A DNA stretch of 64,000 nucleotides, from the NCBI GenBank assembly GCA_947648915.1, contig CANSPQ010000002.1:50-64049 (forward strand), in the 5' to 3' direction. This DNA comes from an uncultured Bacillales bacterium. Lineage in GTDB: Bacteria > Bacillota_I > Bacilli_A > RF39 > UBA660. Numbering within the stretch: the first letter of the stretch is position 1; each line of letters starts with the position of its first letter. Under the pieces are notes generated by a model. It saw only the letters and a list, made by a program, of their open reading frames with translations, ran no database searches and was not told the DNA's origin. Shown piece by piece: positions 7,326 through 64,000 of this stretch. The translations under genes were made by a program, and so were the position numbers.

Positions 7326-7910
7326 CTAACCTTTCTTACGCCATCTTTCATCATCACTCTTTTTCCAAGCAGCGATTAAATTAATGGCTTCTGCTAATTG
7401 AATGGATATTTGTTTATACTGTTTTTTCAAAATACAATTACAACTCTCCGCAATCATCGCAACATATCCCAATAATTTTAGCTTTACAATAGTCGCTTTT
7501 TGAAATTGTACTCTTATCATCTTATTTTCTTGAGAGTCCATTCTCGTCAAATTAGCTTGCAACAACAATTCCAATGTATCCAAACAATAGTTCTGCATTC
7601 TATTTACAAATACACCTCTAAACTTTTTAGGAGATTTTTCTGTCACTGCGATTACGTAAGCACCCAACTTCTTTACAACCGTAATTACTATTAAATCATT
7701 TGCATTAAAGGGAATCTTAGAAATTCTTTCCAATTCCTGATCTTCTATTTCTAATTTTTCCCTTAAAGCATTTATATTTATTTTTTGTTCATTTACACTC
7801 GCAAGTGCTTTTTTGATTGCAACTGCATCATCTATACTATTTACACTTGTTTCATATTGTTCTACTTGCTTTGGTATTTTTAAACTACCATTTCTATTTA
7901 CCTGCAGCAC
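7326..7910 (-). CDS. Avd-like accessory variability determinant (four-helix-bundle protein), probably with an N-terminal extension or a later non-ATG start
   Basis: The C-terminal ~120 aa align loosely with the Bordetella phage bAvd pattern (Y..A...SPKKFRGVF..., LDTLELLLQAN). Basic, helical. Immediately upstream of the TR. Confidence 0.5.
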   Translation of the reverse strand: MLQVNRNGSLKIPKQVEQYETSVNSIDDAVAIKKALASVNEQKININALREKLEIEDQELERISKIPFNANDLIVITVVKKLGAYVIAVTEKSPKKFRGVFVNRMQNYCLDTLELLLQANLTRMDSQENKMIRVQFQKATIVKLKLLGYVAMIAESCNCILKKQYKQISIQLAEAINLIAAWKKSDDERWRKKG

Positions 7911-49427: not shown

Positions 49428-49539
49428 CTATTATACTATAAGAAAGATTGACAAAAAATTGACTTTTTTTTCGAATTTTCCTTAATTTTATTGCATAAGA
49501 TAAAGTAATATGTTATGATATAAAGGCAGTGATGCGAAT

Positions 49540-49616
49540 GGACCCTTAGCTCAGTTGGTTAGAGCATCCGGCTCATAACCGGGCGGTCGATGGTTCGAGT
49601 CCATCAGGGTCCACCA
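49540..49616 (+). tRNA. tRNA-Met (CAT anticodon; could be tRNA-Ile2 lysidine type)
   Basis: Cloverleaf with anticodon loop CTCATAA. CCA encoded. Confidence 0.85.
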
Positions 49617-49620
49617 ATAT

Positions 49621-49705
49621 GCAGGTGTGGCGAAATTGGCAGACGCGCTAGACTTAGGATCTAGTGCCTTACGGCATGGGGGTTCAAGTCCCTTCACCTG
49701 CACCA
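49621..49705 (+). tRNA. tRNA-Leu(TAG)
   Basis: Anticodon stem CTAGA/TCTAG with loop CTTAGGA. Long variable arm. CCA encoded. Confidence 0.85.
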
Positions 49706-49711
49706 TATGTT

Positions 49712-49745
49712 TATTAAGCGTTGTGAAACAACGTTTTTTTATTTA
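49712..49745 (+). terminator. intrinsic terminator AAGCGTTGTGAAACAACGTTTTTTTATTT
   Basis: Seen in sequence after the tRNA pair. Confidence 0.5.
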
Positions 49746-49859: not shown

Positions 49860-50189
49860 CATTCTTTTCGCCACAGTAAAGCATTGCATTTGTTAGAAAC
49901 AGGAGTTAATCTCGTTTACATTAGAAATATATTAGGGCATAAATCAATTACTACAACTGAGATTTATGCAAAAACTAATCCTGAAATAAAACGAAAAGCA
50001 ACCGAAAACAATAGTCAAAGCATCAAAGTCAGTGATAGGTATAGTTCAAAAAATAAGAATGATTTATTAAACTGTTTAAAACCTAGTCGTCAAAAACTAG
50101 GTTTTAAACAGAAAATCATTAGTTATGAAATTTGTTTTGAATTTAAACACTATTCTGATATAAACGCTTCTCTTTTTGTAATTTTTTAA
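49860..50189 (+). pseudogene. tyrosine recombinase (phage integrase) C-terminal remnant
   Basis: HSFRHSKALHLLETGVNLVYIRNILGHKSITTTEIYAKT is integrase box II (R-H-R-Y region). There is an in-frame stop about 20 codons upstream. The N-terminal ~300 aa are absent. Confidence 0.6.
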
Positions 50190-52284
50190 CTAAGGCTTCA
50201 ACAGTTGGAGTTTTATGACTGGCATCTATACTTGCTTCTCTTATAATACTTTCTTGTTCTAAAGTATAGTTATATAATTGCAATGTACGATTTAAACCTC
50301 TTTCATATTTACTTTGTTTGTTAACCGATAAATCTTGAAAAGATGATGTTATAAATTCATGTATTTCGTTAAGTATAATTCTATTATTAAGTTCGCCTAT
50401 TGCTTCAATCTCAATCATTCTATCAGTTACTGAAATTTCATTCAAAGCATGATTAATATATTGACTATTGTCAAATGAAAGACATACTTGAACTCCATTT
50501 TTATCTAACACAACATCAGTTCTTTTTGTGCGAGAATTTAAAATCGGAAATTTTAAAATTTCTTCAAAATTTACTGCAACATTTGATTCAATCATTTTTT
50601 GTCTAAAAGTTTCAAAATTATCATCTGGTAAATTTTCTTCAATTTCACTTCTAGAAGAGTATACCTCCCCCTTTTCAAGTGGCATTTTACATGTGGCTTT
50701 TATTTTTTCTTTACCATTTTGTTCAACTTTTCGTATTCTTAATGAACCACCATTTTTATACAAATCTAAATTCATTGTATCATAGTATTCATCATTATTT
50801 TGTTTTTTTGTTGTTCTAACTACTTTAAAACCCTTTGATACAAAAACAGATATGATTTGATTCAGTAATGTGTCTTGATCTAATATATTAGATTCTTTAA
50901 AATTATCTCCTACAATATACTTTAATTCAAATTCTTCTGGCTTTTTATTTAATTCTTCTATCATCTTTCTTACCTCACCATCATATTTTTTAAAATCTTC
51001 TACATTCAACCCAAGTTCTATCCTTAATAATTCAGGATTAAAGAATATATAACTATCTTCTAATACCTCTTGTGGTCTTATCAAATTAGTACATTCTGTT
51101 AAATCCATTATTCTATTACCGTTTTGAATATTTAATTTTTGCTCTTTCTTATATAATTTAGTTTTTGTTCCAATACTTACAATTGAAAGTGTACTATCTA
51201 AGTCGATATCTCCAAATATTTCTTTTAATCTACTTTTTATTTTATCAATTGAAATATCATTATTTATTAAAATATAATCACTAATATTACTAAAATCACA
51301 TAGATATGACATAATAAAATCCAAATTTATTTTAGCTAAAATGTCAAATGATTTTTTAAAATCTTCATCTTTCATTTTAAGAAAATCATTTAAATTCCTA
51401 ACTCTTGGATCAGATGATAACGTTTTAAAACTATTTGAAACGGGTACTCTATGTAAAATGGTAGAATTCCTATATCTTTCTATTATTTTTTCGAATATAT
51501 AATCTCCCAAAACAGAAACTGGACTTAAATAAACATCTCTATACATTTGATATCTTTGTAGCAAAACATTTTCTATACCAGCTAATCCTTTTCTATTAAT
51601 TAAAAGTTCATATTCTTGATTGTTATTGACCACAACATTCAAATTTGAAATAATTCGTTTTAAATCTATTGCTGAAGCAATGCCAACATAATAAGAATCA
51701 CGAAGTAAATAATCAATTCTATCTGCATCTAACTGATAGGAAACAAGATTATTAAGTAGTTTTGTAAAACTATCTTTTCCTAATTCATCTTTATCATTAA
51801 TCTCAGCTATAAAACTTGCAATTTTTTTTACTTTTTGTTTTCCAAAAAGTTTTGTTATCACTTGATTCACTTCTGTATCTCCAAGTAATATATCTGTAGT
51901 TCTTTTTTCATGTGAATAATTTGTTACCAATTCTAATGAATGAGAAAATGGTCCATGCCCTATATCATGCAATAACATAGAACATAAAGCAATGTCTTTA
52001 TCATCTTTGCTAAGTTCTATATTATAGTTTTTTAATATTTCTTCTAATCTTTTTAAAAATAAAGACATAACATAAAAAGCACCTACACTATGACTTAATC
52101 TATCATTTTGTGATAATTCCTTAAATTCTAATTGTGAAAAACCATTTTGCGAAATACCTGATAATCGTTGCATTTCTTTTGTTAAGATTATTTCAGAAAA
52201 TGGATATGATACAATTATCTTTCCATAAATTGGATCTTCCACGATTAATGATTTATCTTTGTTTTCAATACATACAAATGCCAT
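50143..52284 (-). CDS. HD-domain (dGTPase/SAMHD1-like) phosphohydrolase fused to a C-terminal CYTH domain. Real start at 52284 after GGGAGG.
   Basis: LLHDIGHGPFSHSLE and DADRIDYLLRDS in the N-terminal half. EFELKY (ExExK) CYTH tunnel motif in the C-terminal half. Confidence 0.6.
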   Translation of the reverse strand: MAFVCIENKDKSLIVEDPIYGKIIVSYPFSEIILTKEMQRLSGISQNGFSQLEFKELSQNDRLSHSVGAFYVMSLFLKRLEEILKNYNIELSKDDKDIALCSMLLHDIGHGPFSHSLELVTNYSHEKRTTDILLGDTEVNQVITKLFGKQKVKKIASFIAEINDKDELGKDSFTKLLNNLVSYQLDADRIDYLLRDSYYVGIASAIDLKRIISNLNVVVNNNQEYELLINRKGLAGIENVLLQRYQMYRDVYLSPVSVLGDYIFEKIIERYRNSTILHRVPVSNSFKTLSSDPRVRNLNDFLKMKDEDFKKSFDILAKINLDFIMSYLCDFSNISDYILINNDISIDKIKSRLKEIFGDIDLDSTLSIVSIGTKTKLYKKEQKLNIQNGNRIMDLTECTNLIRPQEVLEDSYIFFNPELLRIELGLNVEDFKKYDGEVRKMIEELNKKPEEFELKYIVGDNFKESNILDQDTLLNQIISVFVSKGFKVVRTTKKQNNDEYYDTMNLDLYKNGGSLRIRKVEQNGKEKIKATCKMPLEKGEVYSSRSEIEENLPDDNFETFRQKMIESNVAVNFEEILKFPILNSRTKRTDVVLDKNGVQVCLSFDNSQYINHALNEISVTDRMIEIEAIGELNNRIILNEIHEFITSSFQDLSVNKQSKYERGLNRTLQLYNYTLEQESIIREASIDASHKTPTVEALVKKLQKEKRLYQNSV

Positions 52285-52607
52285 AAATAACCTCCCTAAA
52301 CAAATTATACAATAAATTGACACATTTTTAAATACCTCTTTATTACAATTCAGAATAAAAACATGAAAAATAAAACATGCATACGATAAGGTATTATAAA
52401 ATGATGGTAAAATGAGATTTTGAAATAAAAAATTGATTAACAAAATATTAAATATATTGGAAAATATAACTATATAGTTAATCATATATAAAATTAAAAT
52501 AGTATCTTGGGTGTAATAAATGAACCACCTCGCCGCAGAGCAGACGGGTATCACAAGGTTTATTATCCATAATTCGTTGCAAGCAGCGGGGAATTAAACC
52601 CCTAACA

Positions 52608-59095: not shown

Positions 59096-59707
59096 TTAAT
59101 CTATTTCAAAATGAGCAACAACCTCATTAATCATATCATCTAAGTCAGCTTTACCATCATTTATCATTACTTTAAATTTTTCTTTCCTACACTGCCTCTC
59201 TATTTCTTTAGAAAATAGAAAATCTCTCTCCATCCAATTTTGAAATGCCTTTGCTTTATCTGAACATCCACTTAGCATTTTAGGAACATATTCTCTTTTT
59301 TTATAATGAAATATTTGAAATTCTTTTGTTGGAATTATCGCTAAATACATATTATCTGCAATACCTAATTCTTTCATTAATGATGGAATATAAGCACATC
59401 CTTCCGTAATAATATTCTTATCACAATTTATCTGTTCTAATTCCCTTATTATACTATCAAATATTTCCTTGTATATACCAAATTCTTCATTTTTTTGTAT
59501 TATAGGATCTCTCATCCATATTTCTTCATTTGTCATAGATAAATTTTCTTTACACAATGATTTGCCATTTAATGCCGCCATCTTCATATATTTATCTAAA
59601 TAATCATCAACCTTAAAATAATATAAATTATATTTTTTAGCAATAATTTCACATATTGTACTTTTACCAGCACAGGGAGAACCACCTACAAAATACACTT
59701 TTTTCAT
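59096..59707 (-). CDS. P-loop kinase-like protein
   Basis: Walker A GGSPCAGKST. Confidence 0.4.
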   Translation of the reverse strand: MKKVYFVGGSPCAGKSTICEIIAKKYNLYYFKVDDYLDKYMKMAALNGKSLCKENLSMTNEEIWMRDPIIQKNEEFGIYKEIFDSIIRELEQINCDKNIITEGCAYIPSLMKELGIADNMYLAIIPTKEFQIFHYKKREYVPKMLSGCSDKAKAFQNWMERDFLFSKEIERQCRKEKFKVMINDGKADLDDMINEVVAHFEID

Positions 59708-60113
59708 ACTTCTTTTCTCCTTTAAATTATTTTTAAAAGCTTATTTTTATGCTACTAAATTGTTATTCTAAATAAATGAATAATCTTTTTTATTAAAGTA
59801 TAATAATCCATTCAATGTTATTCTTGATTCTTCATGATAAAATTTCAACTTTAGTTTAATAATAATCGCATTTTTAATACCTCATATTCCTATCATGCAA
59901 ATACAAAATAAGACTAAGATTTGCAATTATAAGCCATCTTAGTCTTTAATATTTTAACTAAAACACATTTTCACTCTTTGTGAACTATCTTATAAACTTA
60001 GAATATAATCTTTAAAATTATTTATTCATTCTTTCTTGGATAGCGGCCTGTACCACTATCCCATTCGGGATGAGTAAGAATATTAAATAACTAAAATTAC
60101 TTATATTTATCAC

Positions 60114-60620
60114 TTATTCTATTTCTTTTAACATTTGTTGTTTTAATCTATCTATATCAGTAAAAAATAAATTTGTTCCTCTTTTCTTTAATCCTAACAT
60201 ATTTTTAAATAAACTTTTTATTTCATTTTGTAGGTCAGTTGGAACCTTTAAAGGAACTCCATCTACTGTATGCACATGATCTATATATTTTTCTAATGTT
60301 GGAAATGCATTTTGAAGTAATATTGCAGCATCTTCATCAGCTATTTTTCTAATTATAATTGTATTACAAAAACCATATTTTTCTATTTTTTTATCAATTA
60401 TTTTTTGATATTTTTCTACTTTAGAACTTATGGGAATAAACCATAATATTTCCTTATCTTTAATAGTAAAATAAGTTGGTCTTTTCTTACCTTTTTCATG
60501 GTTTTGCATTAAATTCTCATCATTTACAACATCAAAATATTCATCTTTTATGTGATATAAATAGCCTGTTTTAATATCCATGTGCATCATCTCCATAATT
60601 AATATAATACCATAAAGCAA
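60114..60620 (-). CDS. type III toxin-antitoxin toxin, ToxN/AbiQ family endoribonuclease (probable start at MDIKTG)
   Basis: About 155-168 aa. KRPTYFTIKDKEILWFIPISSK matches the ToxN/AbiQ core pattern (RP.Y....I......LW..P.SS.K). Upstream architecture matches type III TA. Confidence 0.55.
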   Translation of the reverse strand: MLYGIILIMEMMHMDIKTGYLYHIKDEYFDVVNDENLMQNHEKGKKRPTYFTIKDKEILWFIPISSKVEKYQKIIDKKIEKYGFCNTIIIRKIADEDAAILLQNAFPTLEKYIDHVHTVDGVPLKVPTDLQNEIKSLFKNMLGLKKRGTNLFFTDIDRLKQQMLKEIE

Positions 60621-60650
60621 AAGAAAACTCCATCTTACGATGAAGTTGTT
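60611..60650 (-). terminator. intrinsic terminator (AACUUCAUC-GUAA-GAUGGAGUU + UUCUUUUGCUUU) between the antitoxin repeats and the toxin gene
   Basis: 9-bp stem with one G-U wobble, then a U-run, on the minus strand. Confidence 0.45.
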
Positions 60651-60668
60651 CTACATTTTCAACCAGGA

Positions 60669-60766
60669 TCATTTATTAGTCGCACCACCTGGAAGCGAAA
60701 AACATTGTCGCCTGGAATCACTTATTATTCGCACCATCCAGAAGCGAAAAACATTTTCACCACTTT
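60669..60766 (-). ncRNA. ToxI-like antitoxin RNA: 2 tandem 49-nt repeats
   Basis: tcatttattagtcgcaccacctggaagcgaaaaacattgtcgcctggaa versus tcacttattattcgcaccatccagaagcgaaaaacattttcaccacttt. Preceded by the promoter TTGACA-17-TATATT at 60782-60810. Confidence 0.5.
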
Positions 60767-60781
60767 TAAAGTAGCAATATA

Positions 60782-60810
60782 AATATACTATATTTTGCTG
60801 AAAATGTCAA
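60782..60810 (-). promoter_or_regulatory. sigma-A promoter TTGACA-17-TATATT driving repeats-terminator-toxN
   Basis: Seen in sequence. Confidence 0.45.
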
Positions 60811-60963
60811 TCTAGTATATATAGATAGTATATTCAAAAATGTTTCAGTTAATACTTATATTTATCATTTCCAATATCGATTGCTATTCAATATTAAAGA
60901 CTATTTATTTTTCTTTTTAACACTGTTTAATTTAATGGTGTTTATATATAAATTCTATACTTA

Positions 60964-62079
60964 TTAATTATCATCTATCCATATTTTTATTTTATGATTA
61001 CAATATACAGGACCATCATAAACTATTGCCACACTATCAACTGCTCTACTCAATGCTACATATATGGCATTCTTTGTAGATGACGTTTCAATTTTTTTAT
61101 TTGATTTTATATATTGTTTTAAATCAGCTGTTGGATAAATTATAGTTCTTGCAAAAGTACAGCCCTTTGAATTCTTATAATTTATACTTTTATAATAATC
61201 ATTAACTTTAGTTTTTTTATTATATCGTAATTGAATAGGTTTATATTTTGATAAGTATTTATTAAGATTTGATGTCCTAACAATAAATATGCCTTGTGAT
61301 TCTTTACTTGGAATATCGATACTTTCTAAATCCCCATATTCTGGATAAAAATCATTTAAAAAATCAACTATATATTTATGACATCTTCTACAAATATTCA
61401 AAGATGTTTGATCAATTTCAAATTTTGTTTTTTTGCATTCAGTACTTACGAATTTATCTATTTTTCCATTACTATATTTATCATACTTTGAATCGCAATG
61501 CGTGTTGTAAATATTTTGTCTTGGATCACCAACAATTATTAAATCACTATCTAAATCTGAAAATTCTTTTATTATTTCTAAATCATATCCTACCATATCT
61601 TGTACTTCATCTATAAATATTTTATTAAAGATACTTGTAATTCTTTGAAATACTAATCCTTTTGATGCTTTATTTATTCTTAAAACTAATTTTGCCAGTT
61701 TATCAGTATATATCCTATTATGATTATCAAAATAATACTTATCAAAGTCTTTCTCTCCATAATAAACTGGAAATCCACTATTACTATTAAATCTTAATCC
61801 AGATTTTCCTTCAACAAAATTAATCCCATTCACTTTTGCTATATTTAAATCTCGCTTATATGGCATTATACCATGTTCTAATAAAAAAGAAAACCATGTT
61901 TGAACTATGATATTTTTAGGAATATACCCTTTATTATCTATTATTTTGTCTTTTATTTCATCTCGACATCTAATAGTAAAAGTTGTAATTAAAACTCTAC
62001 CAGACTCTTTTAATGCTTCTTCCACTATGTAGGTTGTCTTTCCTGTACCAGCGCCAGCTAACAATAATTTATTACTCAT
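60964..62079 (-). CDS. UvrD-like helicase core (GajB-like), short form
   Basis: Walker A AGAGTGKTT. Motif II FIDEVQD. GDPRQ. VALSRA (motif VI). 4-bp overlap with the upstream OLD-family gene. Confidence 0.55.
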   Translation of the reverse strand: MSNKLLLAGAGTGKTTYIVEEALKESGRVLITTFTIRCRDEIKDKIIDNKGYIPKNIIVQTWFSFLLEHGIMPYKRDLNIAKVNGINFVEGKSGLRFNSNSGFPVYYGEKDFDKYYFDNHNRIYTDKLAKLVLRINKASKGLVFQRITSIFNKIFIDEVQDMVGYDLEIIKEFSDLDSDLIIVGDPRQNIYNTHCDSKYDKYSNGKIDKFVSTECKKTKFEIDQTSLNICRRCHKYIVDFLNDFYPEYGDLESIDIPSKESQGIFIVRTSNLNKYLSKYKPIQLRYNKKTKVNDYYKSINYKNSKGCTFARTIIYPTADLKQYIKSNKKIETSSTKNAIYVALSRAVDSVAIVYDGPVYCNHKIKIWIDDN

Positions 62080-63731
62080 TTTATTGCTTCCTCAATATAC
62101 TCTGGAAATTTTATTTTTTCTGTTGTGTCAAAAATTTTTAATGCACATTCAGTCTTATTGGAAACCATATATTTAATTAACTCATCATCAGATTCTTTAT
62201 TTAAACCTAAAATACTATTTAATGTCGCTAAGTCATTTGCTCGTAAAATACAAGGTTCTAGTGTATCGTAATTAAACTTCCCACCATTTTTAGATTTTAA
62301 GTCTCCTTGGTCAATATGTGTATTCTTATCATACTGAATTTTTACATAATGCTTCTCATTATTGCCTAAGTAATTTTCATATTTTTTGTTCAGTGCTTCT
62401 ATATCGCCATCATTATCAGTAACAACAACAGTATTCTTTTTTATCAAATCAGCAATTTCTAGAAATCTAAGAAATGATGTTCCTACAGATATAACGTCAA
62501 TTTCATCTTCTATAGGTAAATTATTATACTTATCGATATATGCTTTTTGAACAACTAATTCATCAGCATCTCCTTCGACCAAAATAGCCTTTTGACATAA
62601 CAAAAATCTTAAGGTATCATACCCTGGTTTCTTCATAAAAAAATTAAATGTTTCTTTGCTCAAAGTTGTAAATTTTGTATAATCATTTTCATTTAGTAAA
62701 ATCAAATTTTCTAAATTAAGTTTGTTTGCAACAAAACTACTATGTGTAGTTATAAAAATTTGTTTGTTTTCATTGACTTTAACTATTTCGTTTAAAAGCT
62801 TACTCATCTTAGGATATGATAAATGGTTTTCTGGTTCTTCTATTAATAAAACAGATGCCAAATCAGCATTTTTACTATTTAAAGACAACTCAATTTTAAC
62901 TGCTGATTGAATACCTTTTCCTATAAACTCAAACGGAATAGAATTTATTTTTGTTATTATACTTTTTTCCCAATCATTTGATTTTAATGATTCAACATCT
63001 ATTTGAACTGTAGTGTTTAATATATGTGTATTTTTACTAAGCTTTTCATTTATATCTTTCATTAGTTTGTTCGTAATAAAACTATCTTGAACATCACGAT
63101 ATAATTGCGAAATACCAATTACTTCAGATTTTTCTAAGTTATCTCTCACTATTTTAGATACATAAGAATCAGAACTATTTCTTAAGTTACACTCTGATGT
63201 GTCTATTATTGTTGACTTTGTTGGAGTTGTTCTTCCTGTTATATCAACACCAGCAGAATTTTTCCAACTAACTGTGTAATATTCAATTGGTAATGAGTAA
63301 ATATCACCCGTACTTATATATAATTGATACTCTTCTTCAAATTTTGAATCAAACTCTATTGTGTATGAAACACAGCCTACATTTTCACCATCACTATTTT
63401 CTTTTCCTAAAATAATTGGATCACATTCTTCAAAATACAATTCTATAAAACATTTTGGTAACTTAGTTGTCTTATCTGTTTTTATATTTTTTAAATAATC
63501 TTGAACGCTATTATTATTAAAAATATCTTGAACTAAATTGTTTTTTAAGTATTTGCCTCTAAAAAAACCAGTAAGGCATAAGTGAATAGCTTCTAATATA
63601 GTTGATTTGCCAACATCATTAATTCCAACCAAAACATTTAATTTACTATTGAATTTTATTTCATAATCACCAAAACATTTAAAATTTTTAATTTTAATTT
63701 TACTAATGTACACAAGCTCACTTCCTAACAA
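62076..63731 (-). CDS. OLD-family ATP-dependent endonuclease (ABC ATPase plus TOPRIM), GajA-like
   Basis: N-terminal Walker A GINDVGKST. ABC signature region. C-terminal TOPRIM ILVEGDADE. Confidence 0.65.
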   Translation of the reverse strand: MLGSELVYISKIKIKNFKCFGDYEIKFNSKLNVLVGINDVGKSTILEAIHLCLTGFFRGKYLKNNLVQDIFNNNSVQDYLKNIKTDKTTKLPKCFIELYFEECDPIILGKENSDGENVGCVSYTIEFDSKFEEEYQLYISTGDIYSLPIEYYTVSWKNSAGVDITGRTTPTKSTIIDTSECNLRNSSDSYVSKIVRDNLEKSEVIGISQLYRDVQDSFITNKLMKDINEKLSKNTHILNTTVQIDVESLKSNDWEKSIITKINSIPFEFIGKGIQSAVKIELSLNSKNADLASVLLIEEPENHLSYPKMSKLLNEIVKVNENKQIFITTHSSFVANKLNLENLILLNENDYTKFTTLSKETFNFFMKKPGYDTLRFLLCQKAILVEGDADELVVQKAYIDKYNNLPIEDEIDVISVGTSFLRFLEIADLIKKNTVVVTDNDGDIEALNKKYENYLGNNEKHYVKIQYDKNTHIDQGDLKSKNGGKFNYDTLEPCILRANDLATLNSILGLNKESDDELIKYMVSNKTECALKIFDTTEKIKFPEYIEEAIK

Positions 63732-63779
63732 AATAATTATAGCATTAAAAGAATACCTTTGTTAGAGAAAAAATAAATT

Positions 63780-64000
63780 TTATACTTTTTTATTATATGA
63801 TTCTAGAGCTTTTATTATATATTGTTCTATATACCTTTTATCTCTTTTTAATAATTCTTTTGGTAACACAGATTCTATCTTTTCTTTATTGAAGGATATT
63901 CTATCATTTTGATTACCTTTTTTCTCATCAAGTATTTTTTCAATTACATCAAAGGTTAATTCATGCTTCTCACTTAGCTTTCTAATCTTTATTGCTTGAG
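63780..64000 (-). CDS. 3' end of an unidentified gene (partial, runs off the window)
   Basis: Open frame ...QAIKIRKLSEKHELTFDVIEKILDEKKGNQNDR...ESYNKKV-stop. Confidence 0.3.
   Translation of the reverse strand, partial: QAIKIRKLSEKHELTFDVIEKILDEKKGNQNDRISFNKEKIESVLPKELLKRDKRYIEQYIIKALESYNKKV

Follow-up and report, generated by a model that had tools for sequence, protein, structure and literature searches.

A very probable CptIN-family type III toxin-antitoxin locus with two 49-nt antitoxin units, adjoining Gabija genes in an island at the 3′ end of ppdK

Introduction

The 64-kb window examined here (the whole stretch of 64,000 nt analyzed, from contig CANSPQ010000002.1 of an uncultured Bacillales bacterium) carries, on its minus strand, a locus that is very probably an intact type III toxin-antitoxin (TA) system of the CptIN family. 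The locus consists of a promoter, two tandem 49-nt repeats (the antitoxin RNA gene, cptI), an intrinsic terminator, and an open reading frame (ORF), cptN, for the toxin. This arrangement had been described in an initial annotation of the DNA, and all of its elements were found to be present (shuffle test, covariance model). The same annotation placed the ORF in the ToxN family and the locus among the ToxIN/AbiQ systems; the type III class and the architecture held, whereas the family assignment did not, as the ORF passes the curated CptIN equivalog model. The suggestion that the longer unit and lower copy number represent a distinct subfamily and antitoxin pseudoknot was right in substance, but not as a novelty, since CptIN has been known since 2012 (PMC3401426).

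Three type III TA families were set up by Blower et al. in 2012, and cptIN was defined by repeats of 40-48 nt (mean 44.8) in 1.9-3.4 copies (mean 2.4) and a toxin of ~149 aa (PMC3401426). The CptIN complex of Eubacterium (Agathobacter) rectale was solved in 2015 by Rao et al., and revealed two proteins and two RNAs joined in a ring. The antitoxin, derived from two genomic repeats, forms a 45-nt H-type pseudoknot, and its precursor is cleaved by the toxin itself after A45 (PMC4627078). Compared with the published descriptions of 2012 and 2015, two units of 49 nt are the norm of the CptIN family, and the only formal departure is the 1 nt by which the unit exceeds the 2012 length range.

Identification of the toxin

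The toxin ORF matched the NCBIfam CptIN equivalog NF047359 with 165.1 bits (cut-off, 90), over profile positions 1-150 of 150. Its sole match in the PDB was CptN of E. rectale (4RMO_A; phmmer E 2.5e-20, residues 6-144), to which BLASTP gave 36% identity over 147 aa (E 1e-25). Searches for the ToxN/AbiQ relationship that had been proposed were negative. No ToxN was found in Pfam at E <= 0.1, where the ORF had only two chance-level matches, none of the PADLOC models matched, AbiQ included, and no ToxN, AbiQ, or TenpN chain was found in the PDB at E <= 10. The matches to NF047359 and 4RMO, together with the lack of any match to ToxN or AbiQ, thus assign the locus to the CptIN family of type III TA systems, rather than to ToxIN/AbiQ.

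Organization of the locus

The elements of the locus and of the surrounding island are listed in Table 1. Coordinates are positions in the window, and all cptIN elements lie on the minus strand. The promoter matches the consensus at 11 of 12 positions and is the top-scoring site in the region; as a class, promoter-like sites are not enriched in this AT-rich DNA (9 found, compared to 10.4 expected). A perfect 10-nt inverted repeat (AATATACTAT / ATAGTATATT, at 60782-60791 and 60825-60834), which is part of a conserved cassette (see below), flanks the -35 hexamer on both sides and overlaps the -10 hexamer, and may be an operator. Downstream of the presumed transcription start of the cptI precursor, the short leader ends in a partial repeat that provides the first GA·AAAUG junction of cptI (the dot marks the boundary between units).

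The two units follow each other in direct orientation at a 49-nt period and agree at 39 of 49 positions (78%). Their repeat score was 14.5, whereas 300 dinucleotide shuffles of the intergenic region gave 2.2 +/- 1.2 (maximum 8). The cptI repeats escaped Tandem Repeats Finder, even at its lowest score, and were recovered both by a separate repeat search and by an offset scan. A covariance model run over the 64-kb window found exactly the two cptI units, with the next match at E 0.06. Owing to the partial copies at both ends, the array amounts to ~2.3 units. The terminator hairpin (60647-60626) is followed by UUCUUUU, and has a folding energy of -12.4 kcal/mol (z = -4.4); a hairpin and U-run were found at the same position in the related loci listed. 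The cptN gene starts with an ATG; a longer, TTG-initiated version of the ORF was rejected, as the homologues give it no support. The GC content is 30.7% in the window, 25.2% in the island part, and 41.8% in the RNA units.

Table 1. Features of cptIN and of the island that carries it (window positions)
Feature	Position	Strand	Basis or remark
-35 hexamer TTGACA	60805..60810	-	within ~0.8-kb cassette conserved between loci
-10 hexamer TATATT	60782..60787	-	17-nt spacer from -35
5′ leader, short, ending in partial repeat (..GUGGUGA)	60757..60775	-	sequence
cptI unit 1, 49 nt, AAAUGUUUUUCGCUUCUGGAUGGUGCGAAUAAUAAGUGAUUCCAGGCGA	60708..60756	-	covariance model, 76.8 bits
cptI unit 2, 49 nt, CAAUGUUUUUCGCUUCCAGGUGGUGCGACUAAUAAAUGAUCCUGGUUGA	60659..60707	-	covariance model, 75.7 bits
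Partial third repeat, 8 nt, AAAUGUAG	60651..60658	-	provides last GA·AAAUG junction
Intrinsic terminator between antitoxin and toxin	60617..60647	-	9-bp stem, GUAA loop, U-run
Ribosome-binding site GGAG, 9 nt 5′ of ATG	60591..60594	-	sequence
cptN toxin gene, 155 aa, predicted endoribonuclease	60114..60581	-	NF047359, 4RMO_A, dN/dS; ATG at 60581, stop codon ends at 60114
Conserved non-coding tail of cassette, ending ...CCCGAAUGGGAUAGUGGUA (island right end)	60051..60113	-	cassette/junction comparison
attR side: displaced old ppdK 3′ end (CAGGCCGCTATCCAAGAAAGAATGAATAAATAA, QAAIQERMNK-stop)	60018..60050	-	junction comparison
gajB (Gabija helicase, UvrD-like), upstream neighbor in island	60964..62079	-	PADLOC GajB, E 2.7e-118
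gajA (Gabija OLD-family ATPase/TOPRIM nuclease), 545 aa	62076..63713	-	PADLOC GajA, E 7e-185; gene call taken from identical islands
orf157, 3′ part, cut by window end	63780..64000	-	comparison with identical islands

Fold of the antitoxin RNA

An H-type pseudoknot was tested on an alignment of 56 distinct units, with stem S1 formed by columns 9-13/28-32 and stem S2 by columns 16-20/45-49. Standard pairs were found in 96.3% of cells, compared to 30-53% when the partners were slid by 1-3 columns. Changes on both sides occurred in six of the ten pairs, with double changes in 86 cells, and neither the observed pairing nor the covariation score was reached by any of 500 shuffles. The S1 covariants include UUCGC/GCGAA, UCCGC/GCGGA, and CUCGC/GCGAG, and those of S2 include CUGGA/UCCAG, CCAGG/CCUGG, CCGGG/CCCGG, CUAGA/UCUAG, CUGAA/UUCAG, and CCGAG/CUCGG. 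This covariation supports the prediction that the cptI unit folds as an H-type pseudoknot, in which S1 would be UUCGC/GCGAA and S2 CUGGA/UCCAG in unit 1, and UCGC/GCGA and CCAGG/CCUGG, respectively, in unit 2.

The minimum free energy structure given by ViennaRNA for unit 1 contains a nested helix of UCGC with the 3′ tail GCGA. This helix was rejected: one of its pairs is unpaired in 35 of the 56 units, and compensation for the U-to-C change at column 10 is found at column 31 rather than at column 53. A search of Rfam 15 gave nothing but chance-level matches for the repeat region at E <= 10, and no RNA genes other than three tRNAs in the window as a whole.

Conservation in related loci

A large protein collection contained 2774 homologues of the toxin, the best 120 of which are all at least 84% identical to it. 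A scan of one genome per species, using two search motifs, identified 275 genomes that encode a CptN relative. Eighty loci with 72-99% identity were kept, almost all of them from gut metagenome-assembled genomes (MAGs), mostly labelled as uncultured Bacilli or Tenericutes; the repeat statistics refer to the 75 of these with usable upstream sequence. The initial annotation had made its reading depend in part on the presence of repeats in homologous loci, and two tandem units were found in all 75, with unit lengths of 49-52 nt (49/49 nt in 57 loci, 51/51 nt in 13, and mixed or 50-52 nt in the remainder). The order of partial repeat, unit 1, unit 2, partial repeat, and terminator is constant throughout. 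Of the 75 loci, 74 have GA·CAAUG at the internal junction, all have GA·AAAUG at the 3′ junction, and 57 have GA·AAAUG at the 5′ junction. Three junctions that delimit two units and no more are consistent with a two-RNA complex.

The ratio of nonsynonymous to synonymous substitution rates (dN/dS) was calculated for the window cptN against each of 75 relatives; its median is 0.066 and its range 0.02-0.24, at a dS of 0.5-1.4. The toxin gene is under strong purifying selection, and so is the RNA: the sequence of unit 2 is identical in 46 related loci, in spite of the synonymous divergence of cptN. Units 1 and 2 carry different S2 helices in 59 of the 75 loci. Between CUGGA/UCCAG in unit 1 and CCAGG/CCUGG in unit 2 there are three compensatory differences, and each version is kept between loci. 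The distinct helices may guard against mispairing between units, misfolding, or recombination, or may reflect an asymmetric 2:2 complex. Two cptIN loci stand in tandem in some genomes (L025:1876-2840 and L069:409-1361).

No phage record was found to contain a CptN relative. CptN relatives with 31-36% identity, all annotated as hypothetical, were found on 15 plasmids in PLSDB, for example NZ_CP048628.1 of Megamonas funiformis and plasmids of C. perfringens; the 2012 census listed no plasmid-borne cptIN (PMC3401426). The sole "viral" contig with a CptN relative (L161, IMGVR_UViG_3300011008_002676; 74% identity, two cptI units) has a SpaA-type adhesin, LPD28, a VirB4/HerA-like ATPase, and an M23 peptidase in the cptIN flanks, and looks like a conjugative element, not a phage.

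Comparison with known type III systems

The E. rectale locus was recovered from human-gut metagenome contigs, with a toxin 98% identical to the 4RMO protein, and was found to consist of TTGACT, 17 nt, TAAGAT, two 45-nt repeats, a terminator, and cptN. The register of its antitoxin was set by the residues named in the paper (G13, U23, G24, A29, U30, A33, G35, G44, and A45; PMC4627078), which gives AAGUUUACCACUGACCGAUAUGUGGUAUAUAAAUGGUCGGGUUGA as the unit. The window locus likewise has a promoter, two tandem repeats, a terminator, and a toxin of ~155 aa, belongs to the same curated family, and has two units, matching the 2:2 complex of E. rectale CptIN. E. rectale CptI and unit 2 of the window both present, in the same order, an A/U-rich 5′ tail, a 5-bp S1, an L1 loop of 1-2 nt, and a 5-bp S2, and both have an A-rich L2 loop and a 3′ end in ...GGUUGA. 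In the E. rectale structure, the A-rich L2 with its kink U forms an extended A-minor twist (PMC4627078). The L2 loops of the window units (UAAUAAGUGAU / CUAAUAAAUGAU) and of E. rectale CptI (AUAUAAAUG) have AUAAAUG in common, with a length of 11 nt here and 9 nt in E. rectale. Other differences are the unit length, 49 nt (49-52 nt in the clade of related loci) versus 45 nt, which puts the window unit just above the 40-48-nt range of 2012; the segment from the S2 5′ strand to the S1 3′ strand, UGGU (4 nt, with UGG invariant in the clade) versus AU (2 nt); and the 5′ tail, which has 2 additional nt here. The two E. rectale units differ by 1 nt, whereas in most loci of the clade the two S2 helices are distinct.

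ToxIN of Pectobacterium atrosepticum and Bacillus thuringiensis, as well as AbiQ/antiQ, resemble the window locus in design, with a repeat RNA cut by its own toxin into inhibiting pseudoknots and a terminator between the repeats and the toxin, and they give abortive infection. They differ in that no sequence match is detectable and in that the units measure ~34-36 nt, compared to 49 nt here, and are present in 5.5 (ToxI, ~36 nt) or 2.8 (antiQ) copies; the ToxIN complex is a triangular 3:3 assembly (PMC4627078). TenpIN is likewise a type III TA system with few long repeats (39-57 nt, ~2.2 copies; PMC3401426), but has a toxin of another family, with no match to the window ORF.

Proposed mechanism

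The mechanism proposed here is the ToxIN/CptIN paradigm (PMC4627078, PMC3401426) applied to a locus that agrees with it in every sequence-level feature that could be tested. A constitutive sigma-70-type promoter would transcribe a short precursor containing the two 49-nt cptI units. Most transcripts would end at the intrinsic terminator, with occasional read-through yielding the cptN mRNA, so that the antitoxin RNA would be in excess over the toxin, as expected from the paradigm. CptN, the predicted endoribonuclease, would cut the precursor after the invariant GA, at the three conserved GA·(A/C)AAUG junctions, would leave a 2′,3′-cyclic phosphate, and would thereby free exactly two 49-nt RNAs. 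For each of these, an H-type pseudoknot is predicted, in which S1 has 4-5 bp, S2 has 5 bp, and an A-rich loop crosses S1. The single-stranded tails of the RNAs would bind two CptN proteins and thereby close an inactive 2:2 ring, as in E. rectale CptIN. A disturbance of transcription or of RNA stability would deplete the labile antitoxin and release CptN, which would then cut RNA of the cell or of a phage. Such a disturbance could plausibly come from phage infection or from loss of the island in which cptIN resides.

An island at the 3′ end of ppdK

Nucleotide homology of the 80 related loci to the window is limited to a ~0.8-kb cassette (roughly 60838-60049), which begins ~25 nt 5′ of the -35 hexamer and ends ...GATAGTGGTACA, 65 nt beyond the stop codon. 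Upstream sequence of 3 kb or more was available for 59 loci, and in 34 of these the ppdK gene (pyruvate phosphate dikinase) lies upstream, on the same strand. It is directly adjacent to cptIN in 15 loci, and in 18 loci the gap from ppdK to the promoter measures 0.2-3.8 kb, with cargo genes filling several of these gaps. In the window, the Gabija genes gajA and gajB, which overlap by 4 nt, lie upstream of cptIN on its strand; at other loci, the nearest upstream genes include Abi_2 (four loci) and AbiU2 (one locus). The downstream neighbors of cptIN loci are unrelated housekeeping genes. On contigs with exactly the GajB of the window, the gene order is a Xer-like recombinase gene, ppdK, HTH_3, ParB_N, orf157, GajA, GajB, and cptIN, and three further, unrelated contexts were found downstream of cptIN on these contigs.

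Comparison of these contigs by sliding identity revealed an island of ~5.4 kb that is 99.3-100% identical in four genomes (window 60018-64000 and beyond, L162:6640-12034, L163, and L165), whose ppdK genes are only 60-84% identical. The identical block takes in the last 11 codons of ppdK and everything up to GGTACA, beyond which identity collapses. At the left junction, the host ppdK meets CAAGCTGCTATACGCGAAAAGGAGAACAAATAG, an island-borne replacement 3′ end that encodes QAAIREKENK-stop; at the right junction, ...GATAGTGGTA meets CA(A/G)GC and each host's own old ppdK 3′ end. cptIN is the module of the island that adjoins attR. The precise junctions, together with the identity of the island across diverged ppdK genes, are the signature of site-specific integration at the 3′ end of ppdK and of recent interspecies transfer.

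Integrative islands that target tRNA or tmRNA genes insert in the 3′ end of the gene and bring a replacement 3′ end. The ppdK island is similar in that it brings a replacement ppdK 3′ end, leaves the old one as a direct-repeat remnant at the far junction, and has precise junctions with a short common core, CA(A/G)GC. It differs in that its target, ppdK, is a protein-coding gene and in that no recombinase or integrase is recognizable inside the ~5.4 kb. The predicted circular attP junction, GATAGTGGTA joined to CAAGCTGCTATACGCG, and the right-end motif of the cassette had no exact match in viral contigs, and inspection of the att core by eye revealed no convincing dif-like palindrome. A leftover cptI tail and terminator were found directly after attR in L165 (~7390-7450), an arrangement that points to one insertion after another at this ppdK site. 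The Xer-like tyrosine recombinase gene (Phage_int_SAM_1 and Phage_integrase; L162:2289-3188 and L163:2358-3236) lies ~0.8-0.85 kb upstream of ppdK, where the sequence is specific to the host. Three backgrounds extend that far, and two of them have the gene, as does L164, a duplicate of L162. That this gene encodes the recombinase acting on the island in trans is pure speculation.

A tenable model, to which somewhat less than even weight is given, is that the cassette is the conserved attR-proximal core of a group of islands that lack an integrase and target the last 11 codons of ppdK site-specifically in RF39-like MAGs of gut Bacilli, at least one of these islands having passed between species very recently. 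Such islands would carry interchangeable anti-phage cargo, Gabija in the window and Abi_2 or AbiU2 at other loci, with CptIN as both addiction module and defence, and would depend on a recombinase supplied in trans, either Xer-like or from a helper element.

Biological role and alternative interpretations

Abortive infection and post-segregational stabilization of the island are two non-exclusive roles for cptIN, and the published data do not choose between them. That cptIN is mainly an addiction module, which arrests or kills cells that lose the island, and does not serve in abortive infection, seems somewhat doubtful, yet is far from negligible. The attR-proximal position of cptIN in an island that is near-identical in hosts with divergent ppdK genes points in this direction, as does the contrast between the constant cassette beside ppdK and the variable cargo that separates ppdK from cptIN. 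Plasmid maintenance is described for E. rectale CptIN (PMC4627078), and the two cptIN loci tested in E. coli gave no protection against six coliphages (PMC3401426). Those tests, however, were made with coliphages in E. coli instead of in the native host, and the related ToxIN, AbiQ, and TenpIN systems abort phage infection (PMC3401426). The anti-phage neighbors of cptIN, Gabija in the window and Abi_2 or AbiU2 at five related loci, are the usual signature of a defence island. An addiction function would in any case leave room for defence, as the two roles are not mutually exclusive.

Several observations weigh against a working CptIN system with the mechanism and role outlined above, and the failure of tested cptIN loci to protect E. 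coli is one of them. In E. rectale CptN, the active site contains a Ser-Ser-Arg triad, and Asp81, Ser85, and Tyr104 read the adenine (PMC4627078). Alignment with this protein showed that the two serines are retained in the window toxin (as IPISSK in 67 of 78 relatives), whereas the third triad residue is Lys instead of Arg; Ser85 and Tyr104, which read the scissile adenine, are replaced by Ala and His, respectively, and the counterpart of Asp81 is Asp. With these replacements, the specificity of cleavage may differ from that of the E. rectale enzyme. An AlphaFold2 model of the toxin, built on an alignment of 14 sequences with homologues at least 84% identical, was unusable (predicted local distance difference test, pLDDT, 40; predicted template modeling score, pTM, 0.25). 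Single units folded no better than shuffles in a nested predictor (z -0.6 and 0.0), a result that is uninformative, as short pseudoknots are expected to score in this way. The covariance model of the window units does not detect E. rectale CptI, which indicates that the relationship between the RNAs is one of architecture and a short common motif, and not of alignable sequence homology. The cleavage site, stoichiometry, processing, toxicity and antitoxicity, trigger, and biological role presented here are all inferred.

The substitutions of the triad Arg and of the residues that contact the scissile base are what might be expected of an inactive relic, with a decayed toxin or non-functional repeats. 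Such decay is very unlikely, as the ORF is intact, the SSK and HVHT motifs are near-invariant among the 78 relatives, the median dN/dS is low, an RNA unit is identical in dozens of loci, and promoter, terminator, and junctions are conserved. Window CptN is therefore best regarded as a putative working enzyme, judged from its sequence, whose exact specificity may differ from that of E. rectale CptN.

A locus of the ToxIN/AbiQ family, possibly representing a new ToxN subfamily, would have the operon architecture observed, and CptN and ToxN have their fold and active-site geometry in common (PMC4627078). This assignment is nonetheless highly improbable in view of the negative Pfam, PADLOC, and PDB searches, the curated CptIN model that the ORF passes, and the two units of 49 nt in place of units of ~36 nt. 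Least credible of all is that the repeats act as DNA (operator, iterons, or recombination site) or encode a small peptide, with no RNA antitoxin: small ORFs do overlap them (60640-60774 on the plus strand and 60571-60672 on the minus strand) and the locus adjoins an integration junction, but the compensatory changes in two crossing helices are explained only by RNA pairing, indels of 1-3 nt between loci (units of 49, 50, 51, and 52 nt) leave no conserved reading frame, and the integration junctions lie elsewhere, at 60050 and beyond the window.

Implications and neighboring features

As a type III TA system, the CptIN locus adds little to what was known, extending the length of the CptI unit by a few nucleotides. 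The survey shows that the CptIN family is abundant in uncultured gut Bacilli, given the number of homologues and species genomes recovered, and the 56 distinct units provide a covariation set that backs the CptI pseudoknot outside E. rectale. Nucleotides that are unpaired and yet conserved, namely UGG and those of the GA·AAUG junctions, are candidate protein contacts. PADLOC v2 is without a CptN model, and even the E. rectale CptN matches only AbiQ (E 0.008); as far as the scans show, there is no CptI family in Rfam. Without a PADLOC model for the toxin or an Rfam match for the repeats, standard defence annotation misses these loci beside Gabija and Abi genes. The near-identical Gabija-CptIN island, precisely inserted at the 3′ end of ppdK in divergent hosts, offers a clean, testable case of the horizontal transfer of defence genes in the absence of a resident integrase.

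Some other features of the window were recorded. The first host gene after attR (59096-59707, minus strand) encodes a P-loop kinase-like protein of 203 aa, with sub-threshold Pfam matches only (AAA_18, SKI, and Zeta_toxin). A protein of 803 aa with an HD domain and a CYTH domain is encoded at 50143-52554 (minus strand). A block at 49534-49744, found again close to cptIN in six further loci, was set aside: it corresponds to a tRNA-Met and tRNA-Leu pair (49540-49705, plus strand), which lies within a few kb of cptIN in those six loci, and the recurrence reflects conserved tRNA sequence that is probably unrelated to cptIN.

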